Shown here piece after piece: positions 2,604 to 17,801 of a stretch of 64,000 nt of DNA. The notes below the pieces were generated by a model. The model did no database searches, was not told the origin of the DNA, and saw only the letters and a list, made by a program, of their open reading frames with translations. The stretch comes from Campylobacterales bacterium. Lineage in GTDB: Bacteria; Campylobacterota; Campylobacteria; Campylobacterales; UBA6016. The DNA is taken from assembly GCA_041915365.1 (NCBI GenBank), contig JAYSBP010000012.1:843-64842 (forward strand), written 5' to 3'. Position numbers and translations under genes: made by a program. Positions within the stretch are counted from its first letter, which is position 1. Each line of letters opens with the position of its first letter.

Positions 2604-4646
2604 TTGATAACAGAAATAAGGTTTCAAATGCAACCCACAGATGTAACGACCGTAGATAAAATACTAATAGTCGACGATACAAGAACTATCGTGCAGCTGC
2701 TTAGTATGATACTCAAAAAAGAGGGGTTTGAGGTCTTCACGGCGTCAAGCGGCGAAGAGGCGCTAGAACTACTCCAAAATATCTCCGTCGATACGATACT
2801 TCTTGACATACAAATGGGTAAGGGTATCGACGGTTTTGAGACTTGCAGGCTTATCAAGCTAAACGAACACATACAAGATATTCCGGTCATATTTCTGACG
2901 GCTTTTGACGACTTGGATATGAAGCTAAGGGGCTTTGAGGTCGGCGGTGTGGATTTTGTCGCAAAATCATTCGATAAAACAGAGATTCTGACAAGAGTTA
3001 AAAATCAGGTAAAACTATACAAGCTACAAATGGGTCTCAAAAGAGGTCTCGCCTACATTAGGGCAATTTTGGATGCGCAAAAGCACTTGATAGCTATTTT
3101 TGACTCGCAGCTAAACCTCGAAAACTACAACCGCTCTTTTGAAGAGGCGTTCAAACCAAAAAGTGACTTCTCGGTCATAGGAAAGCTGACCCCTTATGAT
3201 GGATATTTGATACCAGCAGAGGATAGTTTGTTTTTTGCGATACTCTCAAAAAACGAAGAGTTTAAGGCTGAAATAAAAGGCGTGGATGGTATTTTTTCGT
3301 TTGAGCTTAGCGAGGCGAAAGTTCTAAATGAGACAAAAATAATTCTAACCGTTAGCGACATTACCTTGCACGAAAAAGCGAAAAGACAAGAGCTTGAGCT
3401 TTTGAAGTATAAAGAGAGATACCACGATGCCCAACAGCACGATGCGTTCAAAAAACAAAAAAAGATAATCAAAGACGACGTATCGCATCTTCTGAGGGGC
3501 GAGTGGTCTTTTGACTCCTATTACAAACCGCTAGACATTCTAAGTGGGGATACGCTCGGGGCGATAAAAATAAGTGAGGAGAGATATTTGTTTTATATAG
3601 TTGATGCAATGGGCAAGGGGCTTAGCGCATCTGTGACGAGCATACAATCCACGTCTTTTATAAATAATAGTATCGAGAGAGCCAATGAGCATAGCGACTT
3701 TGGTCTCGAAAAAATAGTAAATTCATTTTGTAGCTTCATAAGAAAACAGCTTCTTGACGACGAGCTACTTTGCATTATTTTCTTGGATTTTGACATCGCC
3801 GCAAACACTATCAAGATAGCCAACTACGGTATGCCGCCGCTTCTTATCGAACAAAACGGTCAGATACAGCCGATAAAACCGAAAAATCCGCCTATTATGC
3901 CGTTTTTAGGTACTGAAAATATAGACACGATACCGCTTGACGGAATAACCAAAATAGCGCTTTATTCGGATGGACTAAACGAAAGTGAAACATCGGACGG
4001 GAGACCGTATTCAAAATACATAGAAGATGATTTCAAAGATTCAATCTTGATGAGGCAGCTGCTTAGAAAATTTGAATCAAAAGTAAGCTCTCTGGACGAC
4101 GATATGACCCTTATTTTTATATCCAAGACGTCGACAGAAAAAAGCGTATTTGATAAAAAAATAGAGATACACTCAAAACTAACGGAAGTGATAGAGCTAA
4201 ATAAAGATATAGAAAACATATTGCTTCATGCCGGAATAAATCAAAGGGACGTGTTTGAGGCTCAGCTTGTATTCAGCGAACTACTAATGAATGCTTTTGA
4301 GCACGGGGCTTTGTGTTTAACCCCAGATGAAAAACAAAGACTAATTTCAGAAGATGCCTATGATGAGTTTTTGGAGAGTTTTGAAAATGCACATACGGCC
4401 AAAAAAATCTGCGTAGATATATCTGTTTTTGAAATCAACAACGGGCAAAAAATACTCCAAATCGGGATTGAAGACCCCGGTAAAGGCTTTAAATTTTCAG
4501 AGGCGCTTAAAACAATTTACGTGGAAAATAATGACAGGTTTTCAGGACGTGGAATGTGGATGGCAAACGACATCACGGATGGGGTGTTTTTCAGCGAAAC
4601 AGGCAATAAAACTACTTTTTTTAAGACGGTACAGCAAACAAGCTAA
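2604..4646 (+). CDS. multidomain signalling protein: receiver (REC), PAS-like linker, PP2C/SpoIIE phosphatase and RsbW-type HATPase kinase
   Basis: REC: ILIVDD...LLDIQM...FVAKSF. PP2C motifs: VDAMGKGLSAS, LYSDGLNE, DDDMTLIF. C-terminal N-box ELLMNAFEHG, then G-boxes EDPGKGF and GRGMWM. The ORF starts at TTG 2604. ATG 2628, preceded by AAGG, is the likelier true start. Confidence 0.8.
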   Translation: MITEIRFQMQPTDVTTVDKILIVDDTRTIVQLLSMILKKEGFEVFTASSGEEALELLQNISVDTILLDIQMGKGIDGFETCRLIKLNEHIQDIPVIFLTAFDDLDMKLRGFEVGGVDFVAKSFDKTEILTRVKNQVKLYKLQMGLKRGLAYIRAILDAQKHLIAIFDSQLNLENYNRSFEEAFKPKSDFSVIGKLTPYDGYLIPAEDSLFFAILSKNEEFKAEIKGVDGIFSFELSEAKVLNETKIILTVSDITLHEKAKRQELELLKYKERYHDAQQHDAFKKQKKIIKDDVSHLLRGEWSFDSYYKPLDILSGDTLGAIKISEERYLFYIVDAMGKGLSASVTSIQSTSFINNSIERANEHSDFGLEKIVNSFCSFIRKQLLDDELLCIIFLDFDIAANTIKIANYGMPPLLIEQNGQIQPIKPKNPPIMPFLGTENIDTIPLDGITKIALYSDGLNESETSDGRPYSKYIEDDFKDSILMRQLLRKFESKVSSLDDDMTLIFISKTSTEKSVFDKKIEIHSKLTEVIELNKDIENILLHAGINQRDVFEAQLVFSELLMNAFEHGALCLTPDEKQRLISEDAYDEFLESFENAHTAKKICVDISVFEINNGQKILQIGIEDPGKGFKFSEALKTIYVENNDRFSGRGMWMANDITDGVFFSETGNKTTFFKTVQQTS

Positions 4647-4714
4647 TTTATCGTCGGCTAAGAGTTTTTGTCTTAAAATCGAAAACAGTAAAAACAAGAG
4701 TAAAAGGGAACTGC

Positions 4715-5023
4715 GTGCAACTAGAAAGCTCACAAACGGCAAACGGATACAAAGTAGTAATAAAAGACATAATAAAAACGATAGAAGATAGCACGATATT
4801 CAAAAAAGGGATATCCGATATTCTACTCAAAGATCCGGCGGCAAAAGTAGACATTCACGTCATAGACTCCTACATAATAACCTCTTCTATTATAGGCACC
4901 CTGCTTAAAATGGTTCAAAAAGATAATGCTAAAATCTCAGTCTATGTTTATAGCGCAGATCTTTACGAACTACTAGACAAGCTAAATCTAATCGTATTAC
5001 TGAACGTCAAAAAAGAGTTTTAA
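4715..5023 (+). CDS. STAS-domain anti-sigma-factor antagonist-like protein (RsbV/SpoIIAA-like)
   Basis: 102 aa with a GTG start. VIDSYIITSSIIGTLL resembles the STAS phospho-serine loop (D-x-S...DSSG-x-x-x-L). It lies immediately downstream of the phosphatase/kinase fusion. Confidence 0.55.
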   Translation: MQLESSQTANGYKVVIKDIIKTIEDSTIFKKGISDILLKDPAAKVDIHVIDSYIITSSIIGTLLKMVQKDNAKISVYVYSADLYELLDKLNLIVLLNVKKEF

Positions 5024-5113
5024 GACAAAAAGTAACTATTTCGTAACCGACAGAATATACAATTAAAACACACAAAACACTTCAAAGATAGTGGTTTATT
5101 AGGGTACTCCAAT

Positions 5114-6824: not shown

Positions 6825-7616
6825 ATGTCAACTATAGCTAACGTAAAAGAGGCTCTTGAGCTAGAGGTAAAAAACTTCAATTTTTACTACAAAGGGACTA
6901 CTAGCCCAAGCCTAAAAAACATCAATATGCCAATAGCAAAAAACCGCATCACGGCACTTATCGGACCGTCAGGCTGTGGTAAAACTACGCTTTTGCGCTC
7001 TTTTAATAGAATTCACGACCTTTACCCTGGAAACAAATACGAGGGTGAGATACTTTTTGAAGATAGCAAAAAAAATATTCTCGATAAAGACGTAGACCTT
7101 ATCGACCTTAGACTAAAAATAGGTATGATTTTTCAAAAACCGACTCCATTTCCAATGAGTATTTTTGACAACGTAGCTTACGGCCTTAGACTACAGGGAG
7201 TCAAAAGCAAATCAGAGCTTGAGGGCAGAGTAGAAGCGGCGCTAAAAGGTGCGGCGCTATGGGAAGAGGTATCAAACAGGCTAAATGCCGATGGCAACTC
7301 GCTCTCAGGCGGACAGCAACAAAGACTTTGTATCGCAAGAGCGGTAGCGGTAGAGCCTGAAGTATTGCTATTTGACGAGCCAACGTCTGCGCTTGACCCT
7401 ATATCTACGCTAGCGGTTGAAAAGCTTATTATTGAGCTAAAAGAGAAGTTAACGGTAATCATCGTAACACACAATATGCAACAAGCGGCAAGGGTGTCGG
7501 ATTATACGGCGTTTATGTATCTTGGCGACCTAGTTGAGCTTGGACACACCGAAGAGCTATTTATCAACCCTGTAGAAAAACTAACAGAAGAGTATATTAC
7601 AGGAAAATTCGGTTGA
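6825..7616 (+). CDS. pstB: phosphate ABC transporter ATP-binding protein PstB
   Basis: Walker [10 protein letters not shown], signature [14 protein letters not shown], Walker [12 protein letters not shown], and the PstB-typical [15 protein letters not shown]. Confidence 0.9.
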
Positions 7617-9300: not shown

Positions 9301-10299
9301 TCATTTATCTGCTATTTCGTAAAGCTTTGAGACGGCCTCATTTTCATCCTCATAATACACTTCAAAATCAAATTTTGCCGTCTTTTTGTACACCTTGTCG
9401 TAATACTCCACCAGCAGTACCTCAGCGGCGGCGGACATATCTTTTGCCTCGTAAGATGCTATCGCTTTCTCTTTTGCGACACGGGAAATGTATGGCGTTA
9501 TCTTTTCCATGCAAAAATAAAAATACTCCTCGCTTATCCTCTCATACATCCGCACAATTCTCTTCACACGCTCGCTCAAAGAGGTATCTATGCGTACCTG
9601 CAAACCCTCATCCATCATCTCATACAGACGGTGCGGGAGCATCACGGAGCCTATGCGTACACTCTCCCCCTCTATAAAAACAGGTCGTGAACGGTCTATG
9701 GATAGCAAGGCAGCGACAAGGCGGTTTTGAAACTCTTTTTGGCTCGGTTGTGAGCCGTTGACCGCCCCAAAAACAGAACCGTAATGGTTTGCCATCCCCT
9801 CTAAATCTATCACGTTGTCAAGCGCTTTTAATATGTCGCTTTTACCACATCCCGTGTAGCCTCTTAGGGTTATAAAATTGATTTTTTCAAACGAGTTTAG
9901 ATACTCGACTACAAACTTTCGGTATGACTTGTAGCCGCCATCTATTTTGTCTATCCTGTATCCAATACTGGAAAAAATAGTTGCTAGCGACGATGAGCGC
10001 ATCCCGCCTCTAGCGCAGTATATGGCTATTTTTGCCTTTGGCGTATAAGCCGGATATAATGTTTTGATGTGTTTTTCGGCGTTTAGGCACACGTATCCAG
10101 CGCCCCTCACTCTCGCCTCAAAAGGGGATATTTGCTTATATATAGTCCCGACTTCTCTGTGCTCCTCATCGCTAAGCGCATATAGATTTATAGCTCCAGG
10201 CACATGAGACTCTGCGTACTCTTTTGGGCTTCTAGCATCTATGATGAGGTCGTATCCGGACAAATCACCGTTTAATTTTTCGATATTTACAACGTTCAT
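9301..10299 (-). CDS. selU: tRNA 2-selenouridine synthase (rhodanese plus P-loop)
   Basis: N-terminal rhodanese domain (IDARSPKEYAESHVPGAINL, CARGGMRS) followed by the P-loop GYTGCGKS. This is the MnmH/YbbB architecture. Confidence 0.8.
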   Translation of the reverse strand: MNVVNIEKLNGDLSGYDLIIDARSPKEYAESHVPGAINLYALSDEEHREVGTIYKQISPFEARVRGAGYVCLNAEKHIKTLYPAYTPKAKIAIYCARGGMRSSSLATIFSSIGYRIDKIDGGYKSYRKFVVEYLNSFEKINFITLRGYTGCGKSDILKALDNVIDLEGMANHYGSVFGAVNGSQPSQKEFQNRLVAALLSIDRSRPVFIEGESVRIGSVMLPHRLYEMMDEGLQVRIDTSLSERVKRIVRMYERISEEYFYFCMEKITPYISRVAKEKAIASYEAKDMSAAAEVLLVEYYDKVYKKTAKFDFEVYYEDENEAVSKLYEIADK

Positions 10300-10316: not shown

Positions 10317-10694
10317 CTAAACTATATTATAAAGAGGGCTTAACGTCTTAACAATCGTATTGTGAACTTTTCGTATCGTATCTGTGTCTAGCTCGCCTAT
10401 TTTTTTAACAAATCTATCATGAGAGAAATTTTTAATTTGAAAGCAGTCGATTGTAGATGTTTTCGACAGTCCATTTGCGGCGCTATTTTCTAGCCTAATC
10501 ATCCACGGATAAGAGCCGTACTGCGCCGACCACTCCGTAATAGGAACGACAGTCTTTAGAGGCAGCTTTCCTATTTCATCAGCGCTCACTACCACCGCAG
10601 GTCTTTGCTTGGCTATTTCACTACCGATTTTGGGGAAGAACTCCACAAGCCAAATCTCACCTTGTCTAATATTCATAAAGGCCGCCATCATCAT
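10317..10694 (-). CDS. mazF: MazF/PemK-family type II toxin (endoribonuclease)
   Basis: RQGEIWLVEFFPKIGSEIAKQRPAVVVS is the canonical PemK/MazF N-terminal motif. It overlaps the upstream antitoxin gene. Confidence 0.8.
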   Translation of the reverse strand: MMMAAFMNIRQGEIWLVEFFPKIGSEIAKQRPAVVVSADEIGKLPLKTVVPITEWSAQYGSYPWMIRLENSAANGLSKTSTIDCFQIKNFSHDRFVKKIGELDTDTIRKVHNTIVKTLSPLYNIV

Positions 10695-10914
10695 TCCAAA
10701 TTTCTTTCATATCGGCAGTATATTTCTTATCTTTTGCGGCGGTATCGGCCGCCATCCTCCACCTCTCTAGCTCTTTTTGCTGCACATAGCTCTTTACAGC
10801 ATCATTGTATATAGTAGAGAGTGAGACTTTGAGCTCATCTTTTAGCTGCATCACCTGATTTTTTAGCTCTACAGGCATATTAAAGGTTATTTTCTCGGTG
10901 TTAGAATTGACCAT
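10666..10914 (-). CDS. cognate antitoxin (MazE-like position)
   Basis: 82 aa that overlaps the mazF start. The tail is acidic and aromatic (WNDDGGLYEY), as expected for an antitoxin that inserts into the toxin. Confidence 0.6.
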   Translation of the reverse strand: MVNSNTEKITFNMPVELKNQVMQLKDELKVSLSTIYNDAVKSYVQQKELERWRMAADTAAKDKKYTADMKEIWNDDGGLYEY

Positions 10915-10984: not shown

Positions 10985-11863
10985 CTACTTGCTTGACAGA
11001 TAAGCGTTCAAGACAGCATCTAGCTTTTCGCACAAACTATTAGGAGATATGATTTTGATATGGGGAAGCCAATATTTTACAATGTTTAGTATCTCGTCTT
11101 CGTATGATACTTTTGTGTACAGCATCAGATGTTTATCCGTATGGGATATGACAACTTGATGCGGCAAAAGCTTTCTTCTCAAAAAATATTCAGCCACCGT
11201 ATTGTCTATCTCTAGTGTAGCTTCTATTTCTGTTTGCGAAATCCAGTCTGCCCCACTCTTTTCTATAGTCTCTATAAAATCAGAGCTTGGATTGAAAGTC
11301 TTTTCAAGCACTTTCAAATCAGCCATCTTTGAAAAGCTAAAGTTTTTGAGGGTTCCGTCTTCATCTGCCACTAGATACCAAATAGCATTTTTATTGACTA
11401 GCTTGTATGGTAGCAACATTCTAGGCTTGTCTTTGTAAGTACACGCTATTTGCTTGTTTTGGAGTATGGCGACGCTAATAGCTTCAAAATCATCTTGCTT
11501 TGATGTTATGTTTTCATAACCATATTCTTTGATGAGATATACAGAGTTGATTTTTGTGTTCAAAATATCAGCTATAAAATCATCGGTAAGCGACGGATAT
11601 AGTGATTTTATGCCACTTATCGTGGCAAAGTTTTTTATATCATTGTACGTCAGCTTGCCCAGTGCGTATGACTCCAAAGAGTAGTAGCCATTTTCCTTTT
11701 TTATCGGTAGATATGAGAGTCTGTTGTTCAAGTCTCGCTGAATAGTTCTCTTATCCACGCTAAACTCTTCGCAAAGCTCATCTGCGGTAAATCTCTCACC
11801 GGAGTTGAATTTCACAAGTATCATAGCTAGTCTAGTGGCTATTGTATCATGTGATTTTTTCAT
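10985..11863 (-). CDS. HTH-WYL-WCX transcriptional regulator (BrxR/CapW/PafBC-like)
   Basis: N-terminal HTH (FTADELCEEFSVDKRTIQRDLN), a central WYL domain (NAIWYLVADEDGTLKNFSFSKM) and a C-terminal WCX-like end (ILNIVKYWLPHIKIISPNSL). Confidence 0.8.
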   Translation of the reverse strand: MKKSHDTIATRLAMILVKFNSGERFTADELCEEFSVDKRTIQRDLNNRLSYLPIKKENGYYSLESYALGKLTYNDIKNFATISGIKSLYPSLTDDFIADILNTKINSVYLIKEYGYENITSKQDDFEAISVAILQNKQIACTYKDKPRMLLPYKLVNKNAIWYLVADEDGTLKNFSFSKMADLKVLEKTFNPSSDFIETIEKSGADWISQTEIEATLEIDNTVAEYFLRRKLLPHQVVISHTDKHLMLYTKVSYEDEILNIVKYWLPHIKIISPNSLCEKLDAVLNAYLSSK

Positions 11864-11909
11864 TGTTTTGTCACGCTAGCACCATATTTAGCATGCCATA
11901 TAAAATATT

Positions 11910-13628
11910 CTAGGCAATATGTAGCTCCTTATTTGTACTCAATAGGTGCAAAAAATCATCTGTAGATTTTATTTGCAAATCTATCTGCATAAAATTAGCC
12001 ATCTCGTAAACTGACTCATTGACATCTAAATTTTTTTCAATAGCATTTTGCATATTTTCAGCTATTTTTTTAAACTGTAATTTTTGTTTAGCCAAAACCT
12101 CTAAGGATGTTTTCTCAAAAATATCAGTGTTTTCTTTGATGGCTTGTATTCTTAGCTCAAAAACTTCTTTTACTCTCATCATTCTTTTTTCAGCTTTAAC
12201 TGAAAATAAATCGGCTTGGTCTATGAGCCATACAATGACCGTAGAGGCTACTCCAGTAAGTATAATCATGATAACATCTTTTAAAAACTCAAACGGGGTT
12301 CCTGTCATAAAACCAAGTATTGATTCCTCAAAATAAGCTCCGAGAAAAGTTATGGCGGTTGTTGCCAGTAATTTTGTAATAGCGTCAGCTTTTTGCAGTG
12401 GTGTTATTTTGTCTTCCATCAAAATGTTCACAGCTCCAACAATAGCCGAGAAGCCTTGTGTAATAACTTGTAAAATTTTTTTAACTAATCCAATAAAAGC
12501 ATTTACTATCCCATTTATTATCATAATTACAAAACTTTGTAAAAAATCTTTTATACTGTCAAATAGAGTTCCGACTGCACTCTTCAAAATATAATCCTTA
12601 ACTCTTTTGATTCTTAGCGTAAAAGCTTCAATTTTGTCACTAATATCAAATCCATACAAAATACCATTTTTAAAAATATCACTAAACTCATAATACAGCG
12701 GCTTAATAATTAAAATTATTACTTCGCCCATGGCCTTATCTTTGCTACTATCAATAGTCTGCTTACCAGCGTCATTTACAAGTTTACTTTCGCCTTGTAG
12801 CACATTTCCAACATCACTTACTAAATTTTCTCCAACCTTTTGATTTAATTCTTTTTCAACAATTTTTGTTGCTTCTTTTTCTTTTTCAACCATTGTTTGC
12901 TTGGTTGCCTCATTTTGTTGATTAGATATTGTATTTTTTCCATCACTTACAGCTTCGATATTTGTCTTCCCGCCTTTGCTTTGGTTGAGGCTCCCATTCG
13001 TAACTGCTAAATTTGAATCCTTATTGAGTATTTCTTTAAAATCTTTGTCATCTAAAAACTTTGATGTGCCATATTCTTTAACGGCATGTACCAAAGGTAC
13101 AATATGATCTGGCTGTGGTCGATTAGTTGCAACATCATTCCCTGTGTACTCGTCTTTGCCACCATTTTTTAGATGCTCTTCCTTATATTTCTCCATTGCT
13201 TGTTTGTTTTCAACTTTGGATCGGGGAATTTTTCTATCTTTGATTGTGTTTTTTTCAGTGTCATTCAGGTCAGCCTTATCTTGTCTTTCATCTCGTTTTG
13301 AGCTGTGAACTTCTTCATAGCTAAAACTTTTAATTTCATCTACTAGCCTAGAGGCCGTTATGCCAGTTTTTGCCAATCCCAGCTTCGGATGTTTTACAAG
13401 TCCATCCGCAATATTAAAAAATACAGGAGTCACCAACTCGTCTACTACATCTTGCTTGCTTTCAAACTCTTCATAAATCTGATTTAACACTTCAAGCGAC
13501 GACTGTTGGTCATACAACTCATACTCTATAAGTTTTTTACTCATTTTTAATGGCGATGTGTTGTTGAGGTCATTTAGCATTTCATCAAAAGAAAGTTCTT
13601 TGATTTTATATTTTTCATTATTACTCAT
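11910..13628 (-). CDS. HNH nuclease (Cas9/McrA-type core) fused to a C-terminal multi-helix membrane domain and coiled coil
   Basis: Residues about 171-222 (PQPDHIVPLVHAVKEYGTSKFLDDKDFKEILNKDSNLAVTNGSLNQSKGGK) align with the HNH core D-H-I-V-P...N...N-x-x-K-G. Residues about 300-470 contain four long hydrophobic segments, for example FVIMIINGIVNAFIGLV and VIMIILTGVASTVIVWLI. Confidence 0.6.
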   Translation of the reverse strand: MSNNEKYKIKELSFDEMLNDLNNTSPLKMSKKLIEYELYDQQSSLEVLNQIYEEFESKQDVVDELVTPVFFNIADGLVKHPKLGLAKTGITASRLVDEIKSFSYEEVHSSKRDERQDKADLNDTEKNTIKDRKIPRSKVENKQAMEKYKEEHLKNGGKDEYTGNDVATNRPQPDHIVPLVHAVKEYGTSKFLDDKDFKEILNKDSNLAVTNGSLNQSKGGKTNIEAVSDGKNTISNQQNEATKQTMVEKEKEATKIVEKELNQKVGENLVSDVGNVLQGESKLVNDAGKQTIDSSKDKAMGEVIILIIKPLYYEFSDIFKNGILYGFDISDKIEAFTLRIKRVKDYILKSAVGTLFDSIKDFLQSFVIMIINGIVNAFIGLVKKILQVITQGFSAIVGAVNILMEDKITPLQKADAITKLLATTAITFLGAYFEESILGFMTGTPFEFLKDVIMIILTGVASTVIVWLIDQADLFSVKAEKRMMRVKEVFELRIQAIKENTDIFEKTSLEVLAKQKLQFKKIAENMQNAIEKNLDVNESVYEMANFMQIDLQIKSTDDFLHLLSTNKELHIA

Positions 13629-13640
13629 TGCATATTATCC

Positions 13641-14579
13641 TCATGCGGCTAGTAGTTGTGCATTGCCAACTAAATCTTTGATGTTATTGACAGTTTCCAA
13701 ATCCTCTTTTTTGAACTCTCCCTCATCGGTCAAGTATCCCATCGTAGCCATTTGTTTTAGTACAATTGACAGGTTAAATAGCGCTTGAAACTCTTCAATG
13801 TGTGCTATCGGCATAAGTTTAAAATCTAGTTTTCCATCAACTAGCTCTATGCCTTTTAGTAGATTTTTTTGAGTTTGCGATTTGATGCCATATTCAAATC
13901 TTGAAAGAAGTTTTTCGTAGTTACAAATAAGTACCGAGAAATACTCTTCAACACTTTCAATAGATTTTATTGTTGCTGTCATTTTTACTATTTGAGATTT
14001 CATTTTCTGCATTTCTTCGTTTACTCTAATCTGCTCTTCTTTAACCATACAAAGACTTTCAGAGGCTAGCTTCCTAGTGGAAAAGCCCAAAGTTAAAATA
14101 CCAAATGCTATTGTTGAAAAGCCCAAATTATTAAAATCTATACTGAATACTTCTTTTTTCCCTCTAACTCCAGATGTGGTTTTAATATCAAGTATGGAGC
14201 TATCAAAATACTCTAAAAAATTTTCTCCATCGATGGTGAGATTATGAAGATGTTTTGCAAGATTTATAAATCTGGCAAAATGATTTTGGTAAATATCAGT
14301 TTTGTGATAATTTATTGAACTAATTATTATTTCTATTTTTTTAGAAGCAGCGTCTACTTCTTCTTCATAAGTCTTTTTTGAATCGTTGTATTTTTGCTCC
14401 ATCGACTCATATAGCCTTTCAGCTTCATCAAAATCTATCCTGCCAGTAAAACCATTCCAGCATTTTGCACCACCAGTTACAACATAATCGACACCATCAG
14501 ACACTTTATCTGCAATAAAACTTACACTATCCACAACACAATCAAGGAGACCACCTATATCAAAACCAAGCATATCCAA
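13641..14579 (-). CDS. coiled-coil protein with a central hydrophobic hairpin, unknown function
   Basis: 312 aa. TTG at 14579, or ATG at 14573 with an AAGGA RBS. Long heptad-like helices surround a hydrophobic stretch FSTIAFGILTLGF. The gap to the next gene is 12 nt. Confidence 0.5.
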   Translation of the reverse strand: MDMLGFDIGGLLDCVVDSVSFIADKVSDGVDYVVTGGAKCWNGFTGRIDFDEAERLYESMEQKYNDSKKTYEEEVDAASKKIEIIISSINYHKTDIYQNHFARFINLAKHLHNLTIDGENFLEYFDSSILDIKTTSGVRGKKEVFSIDFNNLGFSTIAFGILTLGFSTRKLASESLCMVKEEQIRVNEEMQKMKSQIVKMTATIKSIESVEEYFSVLICNYEKLLSRFEYGIKSQTQKNLLKGIELVDGKLDFKLMPIAHIEEFQALFNLSIVLKQMATMGYLTDEGEFKKEDLETVNNIKDLVGNAQLLAA

Positions 14580-14584
14580 TCCTT

Positions 14585-14983
14585 TTATTTTATAAGCTCA
14601 TAGCCATATTGTACGATTTTGTTCATAGCCTGAACCCACTTGTATATATTGCCAAATTCAAGCTCTTGAATATCAAACTCTTTGGCTAAATCTTTTATAA
14701 ATTTTTGCTCATTGTCACAGAATTTATTATCAGCCAATAAAATACCCAACAATTCAATCAGCACAATTTTTTTTACTCTTTGTGGCGAGCTTCTCAGATT
14801 ATTTATTACTGTTTTAATATCTTTTTGTTTGGATATCTTATAATCAAGCAATTGACACTCATACGTATAACTATCAAATACATCCTGTTCTTCTTGCGTA
14901 TGTATTCCATCCACCCCTATCGCATAAAATGCCAACTCTAAGAAATCTGTTTGTTCTTGTTTTGATAGCATATTTAAATACAT
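14585..14983 (-). CDS. TerB-like domain protein
   Basis: 132 aa with two helical repeats showing the TerB/DjlA-N pattern: LELAFYAIGVDGIHTQEEQDVF and LLGILLADNKFCDNEQKFIKDLAKEF. A perfect AAGGAGG RBS sits inside the 3' end of the upstream gene. Confidence 0.5.
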   Translation of the reverse strand: MYLNMLSKQEQTDFLELAFYAIGVDGIHTQEEQDVFDSYTYECQLLDYKISKQKDIKTVINNLRSSPQRVKKIVLIELLGILLADNKFCDNEQKFIKDLAKEFDIQELEFGNIYKWVQAMNKIVQYGYELIK

Positions 14984-15531
14984 TTTACCTCCTTGTAGTT
15001 TGTCTCTTTTCTGCCGTCAAGCTTTCCATCTTCGCCATAAATGTACTCTATTTTTTTGGCTATCTCATCAGCCTCATCATATTCATACTCAAAAGAAATT
15101 TCTCCGCCAAGTCCATACTCAATACCTCTAGCAAGCCTGTCATCTTCATACTCCATTGCATATCTCAAGACACCGCCACTATATGTTTGTGTGGAGGATT
15201 TTCTTCCAAATTCATCATAAGAGACTTGCGTCACTTCACCGCTGTGCTTGTCGGTAATTTTCACTATTTTACAGTATCCAAATTGTTGCACAAAATGCTC
15301 ATTCTCGCAAATATTTTCTTTGCAATTAGCTACTTCGTTGCTTGTATTTAGTAGATTATCTAACTTTAAATACTTAATAGCACACTGCAACTGTTGGATT
15401 TTATTGTTAAAACTTACTTCTATTCGAGCATTTGAATTTTCAATTGCTTCCAAAATCTTTTTGAGTCCCCAAACAATAATGACTAAAATAATTACCAATA
15501 GAATTGTCACAACATCAAAACCCATTTTCAC
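14974..15531 (-). CDS. N-terminally membrane-anchored protein with YD/RHS-like short repeats
   Basis: TM helix VVTILLVIILVIIVWGL, then a coiled segment, then repeats VSYDEFGRKSSTQTY / EYEDDRLARGIEY / EYEYDEADEIAKKIEY / YIYGEDGKL resembling Y-x-Y-D-x-x-G-R. GTG at 15531. ATG at 15525 sits behind a GGGGGGAG RBS and is the likelier start. Confidence 0.5.
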   Translation of the reverse strand: MKMGFDVVTILLVIILVIIVWGLKKILEAIENSNARIEVSFNNKIQQLQCAIKYLKLDNLLNTSNEVANCKENICENEHFVQQFGYCKIVKITDKHSGEVTQVSYDEFGRKSSTQTYSGGVLRYAMEYEDDRLARGIEYGLGGEISFEYEYDEADEIAKKIEYIYGEDGKLDGRKETNYKEVKCI

Positions 15532-15598
15532 TCCCCCCTTTTCTTCATATTTAAAATTAACATTCTTGCACCCTACATCTTAAACATTTTTTACATTA

Positions 15599-15787
15599 TC
15601 AACAAAAGTAAATTTTGCCACCAAAAATATTACAAAATATATCACCATCAACGCTCTCATCGGCACAGGGGCAACCACAAAAATCATAATCAACACAACG
15701 GCGGAAAGGGTTTTGTTGATTATTTCCCATGCAAATCCCGCCACATACACCAAATGTAAAGATGAATGTTTCGATTAAAAGTATCAT
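15599..15787 (-). CDS. small cysteine-rich peptide with a hydrophobic N-terminus
   Basis: 62 aa with 8 Cys, including CGGIC and CGCPC. It starts 2 nt after the upstream gene's stop and exactly fills the inter-gene space. Confidence 0.4.
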   Translation of the reverse strand: MILLIETFIFTFGVCGGICMGNNQQNPFRRCVDYDFCGCPCADESVDGDIFCNIFGGKIYFC

Positions 15788-15789
15788 CG

Positions 15790-16320
15790 CTATTCTCTTG
15801 TGTTTGTCAGCATATTTAGCTTTCGAAAAGTAATATTTGCCATCTTACTAATGCTTATACCGTCGAGTGTCAAAGCTACTTGACAGGCTTCATGCATAGC
15901 GTTGTCCAACTCTCTCATCTGCACTGCTTTTTCAATATCCTCATCACTGAGCTGTTCCATATCATCTACTCCACAAAATACGCTCTCCAGTTCGCCAAGC
16001 AGTTTATATTGGGATTCTTGCGCCAATGTAAGTATCTGACAAAATTCATTTAGCTTTTCATTGTTTTCTGTGGTATCTAGGATATCTGGCTTGCCTTTTA
16101 TGTCGTCTGCATGCAATCGTGGTGTTGATTGCAGGTTTTTTATTGACCTATATAGCCACCCCGTCTCTTGAAAAAGTGTATTATGCAGCTCTTCTTTGAT
16201 TTTGTTAATATCATCAAGTGCCGTATCAGACTCATAAATATCATCATGCTCAAAGTATTTTTTAACTCCATACCCAGTTGCCGCCAACGCAACTCCACCC
16301 AATACAAATGGCAACATCAC
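15790..16320 (-). CDS. N-terminally membrane-anchored acidic helical protein, unknown function
   Basis: 176 aa. Glycine-rich TM helix LPFVLGGVALAATGYGV, then an acidic helical region. AAGGAG RBS upstream. GTG at 16320 or ATG at 16317. Confidence 0.5.
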   Translation of the reverse strand: MMLPFVLGGVALAATGYGVKKYFEHDDIYESDTALDDINKIKEELHNTLFQETGWLYRSIKNLQSTPRLHADDIKGKPDILDTTENNEKLNEFCQILTLAQESQYKLLGELESVFCGVDDMEQLSDEDIEKAVQMRELDNAMHEACQVALTLDGISISKMANITFRKLNMLTNTRE

Positions 16321-16440: not shown

Positions 16441-16899
16441 CTAGTACTTTGCCACGGCTTCCCCACCGTCCCTCTCCCAAAAAAACTCAACCCACTCATT
16501 CGTCAAATGCAGATAATAATCAGCCTTGATAACGGCGCTTTGTCTCTGAAATAGTGTTGCTGTTTTGAACTCCACTTTCGGATATGCGGCTTTTAGTTTT
16601 TCTACGACAACTTTTAGCGTCTCTCCAGTATCGACTATCTCGTCGGCTACTATTATCTTGCTAGCTCCCGCAAGACTTGGAAGCTCATCCACCACAGGAG
16701 TGCCGAGCTTTTTTTGCCCTTCATAGGAGTAGGTATTGATGGCGTACATCTTGCGAATACCTGTATTCATAGCCAAAAAATGCGCCAGCGTAGCCCCACC
16801 CCTAGCGATAAATACTATCCCATCAGCCCCAAAATCAGACAACTTACCGGCCAACACTTTTGCATCAGCCGCAAACTCCTCATATCCATATTCCCTCAT
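16441..16899 (-). CDS. gpt: purine phosphoribosyltransferase (xanthine/guanine type)
   Basis: PRPP-binding loop KIIVADEIVDTGETL. The ORF runs to 16941, but MREYGYEEF at 16899 avoids overlap with the divergent gene. Confidence 0.7.
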   Translation of the reverse strand: MREYGYEEFAADAKVLAGKLSDFGADGIVFIARGGATLAHFLAMNTGIRKMYAINTYSYEGQKKLGTPVVDELPSLAGASKIIVADEIVDTGETLKVVVEKLKAAYPKVEFKTATLFQRQSAVIKADYYLHLTNEWVEFFWERDGGEAVAKY

Positions 16900-16928
16900 C
16901 GTTAGTCCCTTTTTGGTAAAATGCTTAT

Positions 16929-17801
16929 GTGATAATAACAAAAGAACAAAAAGCCATCCTTTATATGTTTACTGCGACGCTGCTTTTCGCCGTCGTTGCG
17001 CTAATTGCAAAGCTCATCTCCCACCTTGGGGCATTGGAGCTTACGTTTTTTAGAAATTCTGTCGGGATACTGTTTTTGCTAATGTTTTTTGGCTACGCAA
17101 AACAAAAAAAATTCAACGCCGAAAAAATATGGCTTTTACTGTTTCGTGGATTTATCGGAACGGTTGCGTTAATTGCGTTTTTTTACAATGTCTCCGCCGT
17201 GAGCCTGTCAGATGCGCTAACGTTTGCAAAGGCTGAGCCGCTATTTAGCGCAATACTCGCCTTTTGGCTTATGTCGGAGAAACTTGATTTTATCAAAGTA
17301 TCGGCTATCCTTATCGGTTTTTTCGGTATTGCCGTGATAGGGTTTGACAGAGGTATGCACATGGCCTACGCCAATGCCGTAGGCGTATTTGCAGGATTTT
17401 GCTCGGCTCTTGCGTACACTACGATACGACGCATAAGAGATGATTTTGACCATAGATTTGTCGTTCTATCTTTTATGGGATTTGGGACAATTTTGCCTCT
17501 TGTGCTTATGTCGTTTTCAGAGTTTACGGGCGATGGCGAGATTATCAGGGGTTTTGTAGCGCCAAAGGGCGGCGAGATATGGATGCTCCTCATGATAGGG
17601 CTGCTCTCCGCACTCGGTCAAGTATTGATGACAAAAGCGTATTTTTACGCCAAGGCCGGAATAGTGAGCACCGTTAGCTATTTTAGTATATTTTTTGGCG
17701 TGATATTTGGCCTTTTAGCCGGAGACGCACTGCCTAGCCTCACGGTATTTACAGGGATGGGGCTTATAGTAATTTCTGGGATTTTGATAGCGAAAAAATA
17801 G
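16929..17801 (+). CDS. EamA/DMT-family transporter
   Basis: 290 aa with about 10 hydrophobic helices in two EamA-like halves. Confidence 0.7.
   Translation: MIITKEQKAILYMFTATLLFAVVALIAKLISHLGALELTFFRNSVGILFLLMFFGYAKQKKFNAEKIWLLLFRGFIGTVALIAFFYNVSAVSLSDALTFAKAEPLFSAILAFWLMSEKLDFIKVSAILIGFFGIAVIGFDRGMHMAYANAVGVFAGFCSALAYTTIRRIRDDFDHRFVVLSFMGFGTILPLVLMSFSEFTGDGEIIRGFVAPKGGEIWMLLMIGLLSALGQVLMTKAYFYAKAGIVSTVSYFSIFFGVIFGLLAGDALPSLTVFTGMGLIVISGILIAKK

Follow-up and report, generated by a model that had tools for sequence, protein, structure and literature searches.

An HNH nuclease-like protein with a hydrophobic helical module in a mobile TerB-containing gene cassette of a Campylobacterales bacterium

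The 64,000-nucleotide stretch of DNA considered here (contig JAYSBP010000012.1, positions 843 to 64,842; called the window below) comes from a bacterium of the Campylobacterales and contains a gene, which we call D, whose product combines an HNH nuclease motif with a hydrophobic helical module. Gene D is found on the minus strand at 11910-13628, encodes 572 amino acids (aa), has an ATG start and is preceded by an AGGA sequence 11 nucleotides (nt) upstream. The original prediction, made from the sequence of the window, described D as an HNH nuclease embedded in a polytopic membrane and coiled-coil protein and missed the decisive context: D is the last gene of a conserved A-TerB-C-D cassette, often accompanied by a WYL gene. 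In the window all five of these genes are on the minus strand. Gene A (14974-15531, 185 aa) encodes a protein with a transmembrane (TM) anchor, then a short helical stretch and, at the C-terminus, a YD/RHS-repeat-like domain, as judged by Pfam, hydropathy and synteny. Gene B (14585-14983, 132 aa) is TerB-like according to Pfam and synteny, and gene C (13641-14579, 312 aa) is a helical partner recognized by alignment and synteny. Downstream of D lies a WYL-domain transcription regulator (10985-11863) with helix-turn-helix (HTH), WYL and WCX domains, identified with Pfam and PADLOC. A overlaps B, B and C are separated by 5 nt, C and D by 12 nt, and D and the WYL gene by 46 nt. The GC content is 0.33-0.34 at 12-16 kb as compared with about 0.42 for the remaining window, which makes the cassette a low-GC island.

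Four parts can be distinguished in D. The first, a conserved helical domain at the N-terminus (residues 1-110, nt 13299-13628), is defined by alignment and AlphaFold helices. It is followed by a GmrSD_C (DUF1524)-like HNH/His-Me finger domain (residues 135-235, nt 12924-13226) with a two-helix insertion in its beta-hairpin. Within this domain, the catalytic core with D174-H175, N206, N215 and K218 spans residues 171-222, and its mapping to nt 12963-13118 in the original prediction is correct. The hydrophobic helical module (residues 296-472, nt 12213-12743) is delimited by hydropathy, the family-wide profile and AlphaFold, and the helical C-terminal tail (residues 476-572, nt 11913-12203) by AlphaFold secondary structure.

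Conservation of the catalytic residues is the strongest feature of the family. In a full-length alignment of 28 sequences with identity down to 18%, D174, H175, N206, N215 and K218 are invariant, and F102 is the only other invariant residue in the N-terminal half. Two database searches returned 239 domain-bearing relatives, in which the two asparagines are present without exception, histidine in 238, lysine in 237 and aspartate in 236, with glutamate replacing aspartate in two more. At the sequence level, conservation of the HNH motif far beyond chance is thereby confirmed, and the motif of Asp-His, two Asn and Lys read originally from a single protein recurs in these relatives. By analogy with D839, H840, N854 and N863 of Cas9, we assume that D174-H175 provides a metal ligand and the general base, that N206 is structural and that N215 is a metal ligand. 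Taking the SpCas9 residues as N854, N863 and K866, the spacing between the two asparagines (9) and from the second asparagine to lysine (+3) equals that in D. The alignment to the SpCas9 HNH core proposed originally therefore stands for motif and spacing, while its match of 52 against 32 residues works only with a 20-residue gap. This gap is needed because of the two-helix insertion in D, where 31 residues between histidine and the first asparagine hold helices at 179-186 and 194-201 in the AlphaFold models.

An AlphaFold model of residues 119-266, computed from a 46-sequence domain alignment, reached a predicted local distance difference test score (pLDDT) of 89.5 and a predicted template modeling score of 0.82. 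It shows a strand, the two-helix insertion, a second strand and a helix, which is the arrangement of a beta-beta-alpha finger; the elements are strand 171-175, strand 207-211 and helix 212-218 (53-57, 89-93 and 94-100 in model numbering). Modeling, one of the checks suggested with the original prediction, thus bore out the HNH fold. When this model was compared with the PDB using Foldseek, 46 of the 49 matches were HNH/His-Me nucleases, including Cas9 HNH, Vvn/endonuclease I, Gme-HNH, the SspE C-terminal domain, BrxU, Cap5, ScoMcrA, EcoKMcrA and retron PtuB. The top match was the HNH domain of NmeCas9 (E 0.04), and a Cas9 HNH domain was also the top PDB match of a low-confidence full-length model. 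Since no single Foldseek match is significant, with 0.04 as the best E-value, the fold evidence consists of the enrichment for HNH/His-Me nucleases.

Sequence searches connect D to curated HNH families through its relatives. The domain profile searched against PDB sequences gave BrxU (7p9k) as the best match (E 0.056), in which DH, N, N and K align in register, followed by Cas9 HNH (E 0.36). A distant relative, P0197, scores above the Pfam gathering score of GmrSD_C (DUF1524; 25.6 versus 23 bits) and also matches HNH_4 (E 0.005), and another relative, P0177, has a weak GmrSD_C match (E 0.007). The protein from the window matched no Pfam or NCBIfam family at E up to 0.1-1, and its PDB sequence search was likewise empty. 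The full-length family profile gave no curated-profile or PDB assignment either; its matches to SNARE and MAD1 coiled coils were non-significant. Profile-level significance against Pfam HNH families, which had been suggested as a check, is thus not reached by the window protein itself, and for this reason its link to HNH nucleases is transitive and structural. Four lines, namely conservation, structure, fold search and transitive sequence links, nevertheless lead us to conclude from sequences and models that D carries a genuine His-Me finger, and the sequences best describe it as a DUF1524-like HNH domain with a helical insertion. For both fold and catalytic motif the HNH call was correct, given the invariant motif, the beta-beta-alpha model, the fold matches and the GmrSD_C score of P0197 above threshold.

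Residues 1-110 had no Pfam or NCBIfam match and carry the motifs SPLxMSK, ELYDQ, IYEEFE, GITASRL and FSY in this order, with invariant F102 and nearly invariant Y104; AlphaFold predicts helices over residues 14-100 with pLDDT of about 50-73. There is no signal peptide, and the N-terminal 300 residues are highly charged. In the hydrophobic module, maxima of 19-residue Kyte-Doolittle hydropathy are found at 364-382 (1.90), 385-403 (1.67), 420-438 (1.24) and 451-469 (2.29), with a weaker one at 301-319 (1.06); three of these stretches reach at least 1.6 in the window protein. Across the 28 family members, helix 451-469 (DVIMIILTGVASTVIVWLI, nt 12222-12278), which is supported by both hydropathy and family conservation, has a mean hydropathy of 1.88 and attains at least 1.6 in 82%, and it is the sole helix of TM grade throughout the family. 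The same value is reached by 420-438 in 43% of members, by 364-382 in about 20% and by 385-403 in 7%. Conserved charged or polar residues lie inside or beside the helices (K309, E314, R339, R342, K413, D415, K419 and D473), and helix 451-469 is followed by a conserved basic juxtamembrane motif, D473-x-F475..K478..R485, in which D473 and F475 are invariant, as is F490. The four hydrophobic stretches originally noted are therefore present, with TM grade family-wide limited to 451-469 and shared by the second, 420-438, in about 40% of members. To call this region a polytopic integral membrane domain appears to have been an over-reading, since it contains one conserved TM-grade helix among amphipathic helices with conserved charges.

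Membrane association of D is nevertheless likely on the basis of its sequence. The hydropathy pattern of the module is consistent with an anchor or hairpin in the membrane, or with an amphitropic domain that inserts into it. Basic flanks precede the first and follow the last hydrophobic helix. Given these flanks and the lack of a signal peptide, in the simplest topology the membrane would be entered by a hairpin or crossed an even number of times, and both nuclease and tail would be cytoplasmic. A 524-aa homologue on the E. coli plasmid pGD27-31 (locus L042, 4761-6335) has a near-threshold match to Pfam Oleosin (23.6 versus 25 bits) on its hydrophobic region; this match hints at a monotopic hairpin and not at classical TM helices. 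For the tail, AlphaFold predicts one 52-residue helix (480-531) and two short helices with pLDDT of 57-81. A heptad a/d test on the tail gave no better result than shuffled sequences, so that of the roughly 100-aa coiled coil predicted earlier the long helix was retained and the heptad register was not. We also compared the C-terminal half of D with gene C as a possible copy of it and rejected this relationship (hhalign E 0.09, probability 0.6%).

Synteny was examined by hidden Markov model (HMM) searches of six-frame open reading frames (ORFs) in 40 fetched loci. Genes A-B-C-D were found in this order and tightly packed in every proteobacterial or campylobacterotal locus with enough flanking sequence, corresponding to about 20 species; the order is seen in Sulfurospirillum, Arcobacter, Sulfurimonas, Shewanella, Idiomarina, Vibrio, Ferrimonas, Pseudoalteromonas and Parendozoicomonas. 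Their junctions are overlaps or gaps of up to about 60 nt, mostly below 20. Bacteroidota and Bacillota have B-C-D or C-D, with a divergent or longer A of up to 961 aa. Altogether, the cassette is found in more than 20 species of four phyla. In most loci that have a D homologue, C immediately precedes it, and B and A usually precede as well. The N-terminal TM anchor of A has a maximal hydropathy of 2.95, and A matches RHS_repeat (E 2e-4) and YD repeat (E 3.5e-3) models; its helical region is of very variable length, and the 185-aa protein of the window is a short form of the 240-390-aa A proteins found in other proteobacterial loci. B matches Pfam TerB with E 6.2e-5 and 23.7 bits, just below the cutoff of 24.4. 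Library searches with C, a helical protein of about 305 aa in the family, gave no family match, and PDB searches with A, B and C yielded only chance-level matches. The regulator in the window matches Pfam WYL (E 1.6e-9), HTH_11 and WCX as well as PADLOC WYL (E 2.2e-34). A WYL gene is the commonest neighbor, on either side of the cassette: it was detected with 7 of 19 complete cassettes by sequence search, and a scan of the flanks added six more. An Ion_trans (voltage-gated-channel-like) gene of about 277 aa is located directly downstream of D in four gammaproteobacterial loci (including L001, 10133-10966); this position may be coincidental, or the gene may encode an accessory membrane effector.

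The closest genome copy of D, with 70% identity, is from Sulfurospirillum sp. UBA4058. Similarity between the window and the Sulfurospirillum relative (locus L009) is confined to 10991-15504, from A through the WYL gene, and the flanks are unrelated. Because the similarity ends at the borders of the cassette, we regard the cassette and its regulator as a discrete mobile unit. Integrase or resolvase genes flank the cassette in Vibrio and Shewanella, and some loci adjoin Dnd, restriction, MADS, Menshen or Zorya genes, occasionally Rad52. Directly downstream of the WYL gene in the window, at 10317-10914 on the minus strand, the gene of a MazF/PemK toxin (E 3e-25) overlaps that of a CcdA-like antitoxin, whose match is below threshold (E 4.6e-4); this MazEF pair is outside the region in common with the Sulfurospirillum relative. 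On its side away from the cassette, the pair adjoins a 332-aa protein (9301-10299, minus strand) with a rhodanese domain and a weak match to the P-loop family AAA_18, which we liken by its architecture to tRNA 2-selenouridine synthase. On the opposite flank are what we take, from reading the sequences and not from a family search, to be an HGPRT-like gene (16441-16941) and an EamA-type transporter. The rhodanese, HGPRT-like and EamA-type genes are ordinary chromosomal genes on both sides of the island. Promoter and terminator scans were uninformative, as the number of sites was no higher than in shuffled sequences.

Two further observations concern the region upstream of gene A. A 176-aa ORF at 15790-16320 (minus strand) begins with a hydrophobic motif, MLPxxLGGVAxAATGYxxKK, and this motif is the sole part it has in common with ORFs of 215-226 aa located upstream of the cassette in three other Campylobacterota (L009, 3591-4250; L011, 3687-4334; L014, 2479-3159). 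Based on these sequences, ORFs of this type may be a fifth, lineage-specific component. Homology of the 176-aa ORF to the N-terminal part of DinC, a protein of the Dionysus system discussed below, was considered and dropped when BLASTP gave no match. Between the upstream ORF and gene A, the closest relative (L009) encodes a protein of 243 aa (4293-5024) that combines a glycine-rich TM region with a TerB-like domain (TerB E 5e-4). The same slot in the window (15532-15789) holds only ORFs of 57-62 aa, and a second TerB gene therefore appears to have been lost here.

The family of D is large. A word-indexed search found 119 full-length homologues in Campylobacterota, Vibrio, Shewanella, Idiomarina, Agarivorans and Ruminococcaceae, where they go by the names "hypothetical" or "DNA repair protein", and an exhaustive profile search returned 1,445 clusters at 50% identity with E up to 1e-3, or 325 with E up to 1e-30. 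Homologues are also carried by plasmids of Clostridium, Cronobacter, E. coli, Klebsiella and Pseudomonas. On the Cronobacter dublinensis plasmid pA137-2 (locus L041), a D-like gene of 559 aa and a 177-aa partner lie about 2 kb from a VWA, TerD, VWA, TerY-C cluster, which physically links the D family to a classical Ter-type cluster in one replicon. Aeromonas jumbo phages of about 260 kb (LAh10, 96388-97962 in locus L044; also D3, D6 and D9) encode a homologue of 524 aa in which the DH..N..N..K motif is intact and the C-terminal half hydrophobic. Its annotation as "putative cobalamin adenosyltransferase" is probably wrong, and from its sequence it may be a superinfection-exclusion gene. A tblastn search with D itself against 50,697 phage genomes found nothing, and the sole significant fold match in BFVD was a jumbo-phage protein that is homologous to the family over its full length and encoded outside a tail module.

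PADLOC was the only library with a match to the D family. Its HMM for PDC-M40B aligns with residues 115-484 of D (E 8.2e-20, 69 bits), and this is also the type to which the jumbo-phage homologues belong. PDC-M40 is one of 145 "guilt-by-embedding" defence candidates, noticed because its cassette lies inside BREX, DISARM or type I restriction-modification systems; it consists of three genes, FAM_02470>>FAM_01369>>FAM_02062, of which the central one encodes the HNH protein (Payne et al., bioRxiv 10.1101/2024.01.29.577857). The proteins at the core of PDC-M40B score 221-265 bits as compared with 69, so that D of the window represents a distant branch. Its neighbors A and C matched neither PDC-M40A, PDC-M40C nor any other PDC-M40 model. 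In a core PDC-M40-type locus (L008), both genes flanking the HNH gene are TerB-like (4356-5051, E 3e-4; 6963-7511, E 1.4e-4), with WYL and DUF726 genes upstream, and for this reason the association of HNH, TerB and WYL spans the whole superfamily. The two types of cassette thus share the HNH core (not annotated in PDC-M40B), the hydrophobic helical module, a similar protein length and TerB-like and WYL neighbors. They differ in gene order, with the HNH protein between two TerB-like genes in PDC-M40 and at the end of A (TM, YD-like), B (TerB), C (305 aa) and D here, and PDC-M40B proteins deviate from D at both ends, having a GGNVDT[IV]HN motif in a different N-terminus and no long C-terminal tail. 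We found no paper describing the cassette of the window, and the name PDC-M40 was found in a supplementary table and in no main text.

Several characterized systems are similar to D in one respect or another. D shares with GmrSD_C/DUF1524 domains (PF07510), such as the C-terminal domains of BrxU, GmrSD and SspE, the (D/E)H...N...N..K motif and a helical insertion between histidine and the first asparagine. Unlike these enzymes, it scores below every Pfam threshold and has an unrelated helical domain in its N-terminal 110 residues in place of the ParB-like NTPase domain DUF262, for which a Pfam scan of D and the 28 family members gave no match. GmrSD-type enzymes are single-protein type IV restriction systems, whereas the nuclease of D is fused to a hydrophobic module within a multi-gene cassette. 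The similarity to the Cas9 HNH domain includes the beta-beta-alpha-metal fold, the arrangement of D-H, N, N and K and the N-N (9) and N-K (3) spacings. D differs from it in a two-helix insertion of 17-20 residues in the hairpin, in sequence (identity 16-21%, E at least 0.04) and in lacking RuvC, REC and any guide-RNA apparatus, so that the relation is at the superfamily level only.

SNIPE is a single-gene system with a membrane-bound GIY-YIG nuclease of elongated helical architecture, in which a single N-terminal TM helix and DUF4041 precede the C-terminal GIY-YIG domain; its tether has been shown experimentally to prevent self-cleavage and to position the enzyme to cut phage DNA during injection (Nature 2026, PMC13190303). 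The principle of a cytoplasm-facing nuclease tethered to the inner membrane may, by analogy, be common to SNIPE and D. The two proteins are not homologous, as D has an N-terminal HNH domain followed by a multi-helix hydrophobic module, three partner genes and often a WYL gene, and a Pfam search of D found neither DUF4041 nor GIY-YIG. The view that HNH effectors are usually soluble, making D unusual, is a fair one, with its rarity qualified by the SNIPE precedent, the approximately 1,445 clusters of the family and the listing of PDC-M40B. Dionysus (DinA, DinB and DinC) is a multi-gene, membrane-associated system with a small TerB-like protein, reported from Gamma- and Betaproteobacteria only; it was shown by experiment to be anti-phage and acts against jumbo phages at the early infection vesicle, on phage-derived membranes (bioRxiv 10.1101/2025.09.30.679545). 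Its authors describe DinC as a toxin of the alpha-pore-forming type (alpha-PFT) that did not permeabilise the cell membrane (bioRxiv 10.1101/2025.09.30.679545). The gene B family aligns with DinB (hhalign E 9e-4). Dionysus differs in having no HNH protein and in the order and number of genes, and no DinA-like gene was found in the cassette of the window.

Our preferred interpretation, held with moderate confidence, is that D is the nuclease effector of a mobile, membrane-associated cassette, most likely an anti-phage or anti-mobile-DNA defence system. In favor of a defence and mobile character are the frequent WYL neighbors, the low-GC island with similarity that ends at its borders, the adjacent MazEF pair, the integrase, resolvase and defence genes beside some loci, the embedding of PDC-M40 in defence systems and the precedents of SNIPE and Dionysus. 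D would be held at the inner membrane by its hydrophobic module, with the nuclease domain and the C-terminal tail facing the cytoplasm. A, B and C would form a membrane-proximal complex that senses and regulates; TerB has been proposed elsewhere as a membrane-surveillance module. The WYL protein would repress the operon until infection or DNA damage, and upon a trigger D would cut DNA beside the membrane. As for the unrelated SNIPE, placement at the membrane and away from the nucleoid would supply discrimination between self and non-self. The target, so far as sequence can suggest it, may be incoming phage DNA, which would give direct immunity, or, once D is released or activated, all DNA, which would amount to abortive infection. 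Both roles envisaged originally, cleavage of incoming DNA at the envelope and a nuclease kept sequestered until a trigger, would agree with the sequence.

Several results weigh against this interpretation. Every single structural or PDB sequence match is non-significant (best E 0.04-0.06), and scanning the 28 family members one by one against Pfam at E up to 10 returned no HNH family. Only one helix of the module is robustly TM-grade, three Vibrio-type members lack any hydropathy window of at least 1.6, and the long helices predicted by AlphaFold in the hydrophobic region have low pLDDT (46-76). D has no counterpart in Dionysus: an identity with DinA, in which an HNH domain was suspected behind the label "MAEBL", was rejected (hhalign E 0.8), and the similarity of gene C to the N-terminal region of DinC is weak (hhalign E 0.0039, probability 8.5%). 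In addition, the flank scan showed that most genes around the cassette are housekeeping and not defence genes, so that defence-island enrichment is modest, being suggestive and not strong.

The main rival explanation is that D is a dual effector of abortive infection, soluble or peripheral at rest, whose amphipathic module inserts into the membrane and/or whose HNH domain degrades host and phage DNA. The hydrophobic module would then be a membrane-disrupting domain, either alpha-pore-former-like or amphitropic, and the infected cell would be killed. Most of the hydrophobic helices are indeed only moderately hydrophobic and contain conserved charges, and with the three members devoid of a TM-grade window and a central hydrophobic hairpin (420-469) among amphipathic helices, the module may resemble membrane-inserting toxins. 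WYL regulation and a neighboring toxin-antitoxin module are typical of toxic effectors, and partner C is weakly similar to the alpha-PFT DinC, yet a DinC-type protein did not permeabilise the cell membrane, searches of Pfam, NCBIfam, PDB and profiles detected no homology of D to pore-forming families, and it is the nuclease site, not the hydrophobic helices, that purifying selection acts on most strongly. We regard this explanation as possible but doubtful. The cassette might also serve purposes other than immunity, as a Ter-like module for envelope stress or addiction, or as a device by which mobile elements exclude or compete with plasmids and superinfecting phages. TerB is historically a stress-response domain, the Cronobacter copy adjoins TerD, TerY and VWA genes, and homologues occur on plasmids and, with an intact motif, in Aeromonas jumbo phages. 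Most four-gene cassettes are chromosomal, however, and TerC, TerD, TelA and PRTase are absent from the cassette according to the library scan and synteny; exclusion of foreign DNA would moreover be the same mechanism as defence, with which this alternative largely overlaps. As a separate explanation we find it quite improbable.

That the HNH-like motif is a remnant with a structural or DNA-binding role and no catalysis is very unlikely. Such a remnant could account for the missing Pfam HNH match of the window protein and for the long insertion between histidine and the first asparagine, but DUF1524/GmrSD_C enzymes, BrxU among them, normally have insertions here, as the profile alignment shows, and retention of the catalytic and metal positions and the lysine in 236-239 of 239 relatives from four phyla is unexpected for a decayed site. 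Least probable is that D is a remnant of a phage structural or ejection protein with an HNH domain, its hydrophobic segments being soluble, tape-measure-like amphipathic helices, for which the original prediction had allowed. Residues 351-414 weakly match the tape-measure family phrog_58 of PHROG (E 0.0015) and many tape-measure and minor-tail proteins are among the non-significant BFVD fold matches (E at least 0.3), yet the PHROG match covers 64 residues of a 1,544-position profile, no match was obtained by tblastn in the phage genomes and the jumbo-phage homologue is outside a tail module. No tail, capsid or other phage genes surround about 30 loci, where the context is always A-B-C-D with or without WYL, and this gene context effectively rules out D as a tail tape measure protein. 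The tape-measure matches, in our reading of the sequences, reflect composition. Another role of the hydrophobic module is conceivable, although we think it unlikely: in place of a passive anchor, it could be a targeting device that inserts into or co-assembles with phage-made membrane structures, with A, B and C sensing the perturbation and the HNH domain being delivered to the sites where a lipid barrier is crossed by foreign DNA or conceals it. Such structures could be the inner-membrane channel formed by tape-measure or ejection proteins, or the vesicle that jumbo phages make early in infection. Discrimination would then be purely spatial and DNA shielded from cytoplasmic nucleases would be reachable. 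This targeting role would be compatible, by analogy, with the weakly tape-measure-like composition of 351-414, the jumbo-phage homologues and the Dionysus precedent.

D belongs to no curated family, is a distant relative of a PADLOC candidate, works at most like SNIPE and is not categorically new. It does expose a blind spot of annotation: a family of approximately 1,445 clusters in Campylobacterota, Gammaproteobacteria, Bacteroidota and Bacillota, on plasmids and in jumbo phages, has an HNH site that has gone unrecognised. No Pfam or NCBIfam model covers this family, and its members are labeled "hypothetical", "DNA repair protein" or even "cobalamin adenosyltransferase". The cassette is experimentally tractable, being about 4.5 kb long with its regulator, having homologues in Vibrio, Shewanella and E. 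coli plasmids and offering clear point mutants (H175A, N215A). For the enigmatic TerB domain, which is also part of Shango, Bunzi and Dionysus, we know of no mechanism. Should the cassette be a defence system, it would provide a defined enzymatic output for this domain and a second, independent spatial solution to self/non-self discrimination by a membrane-held nuclease, after SNIPE.

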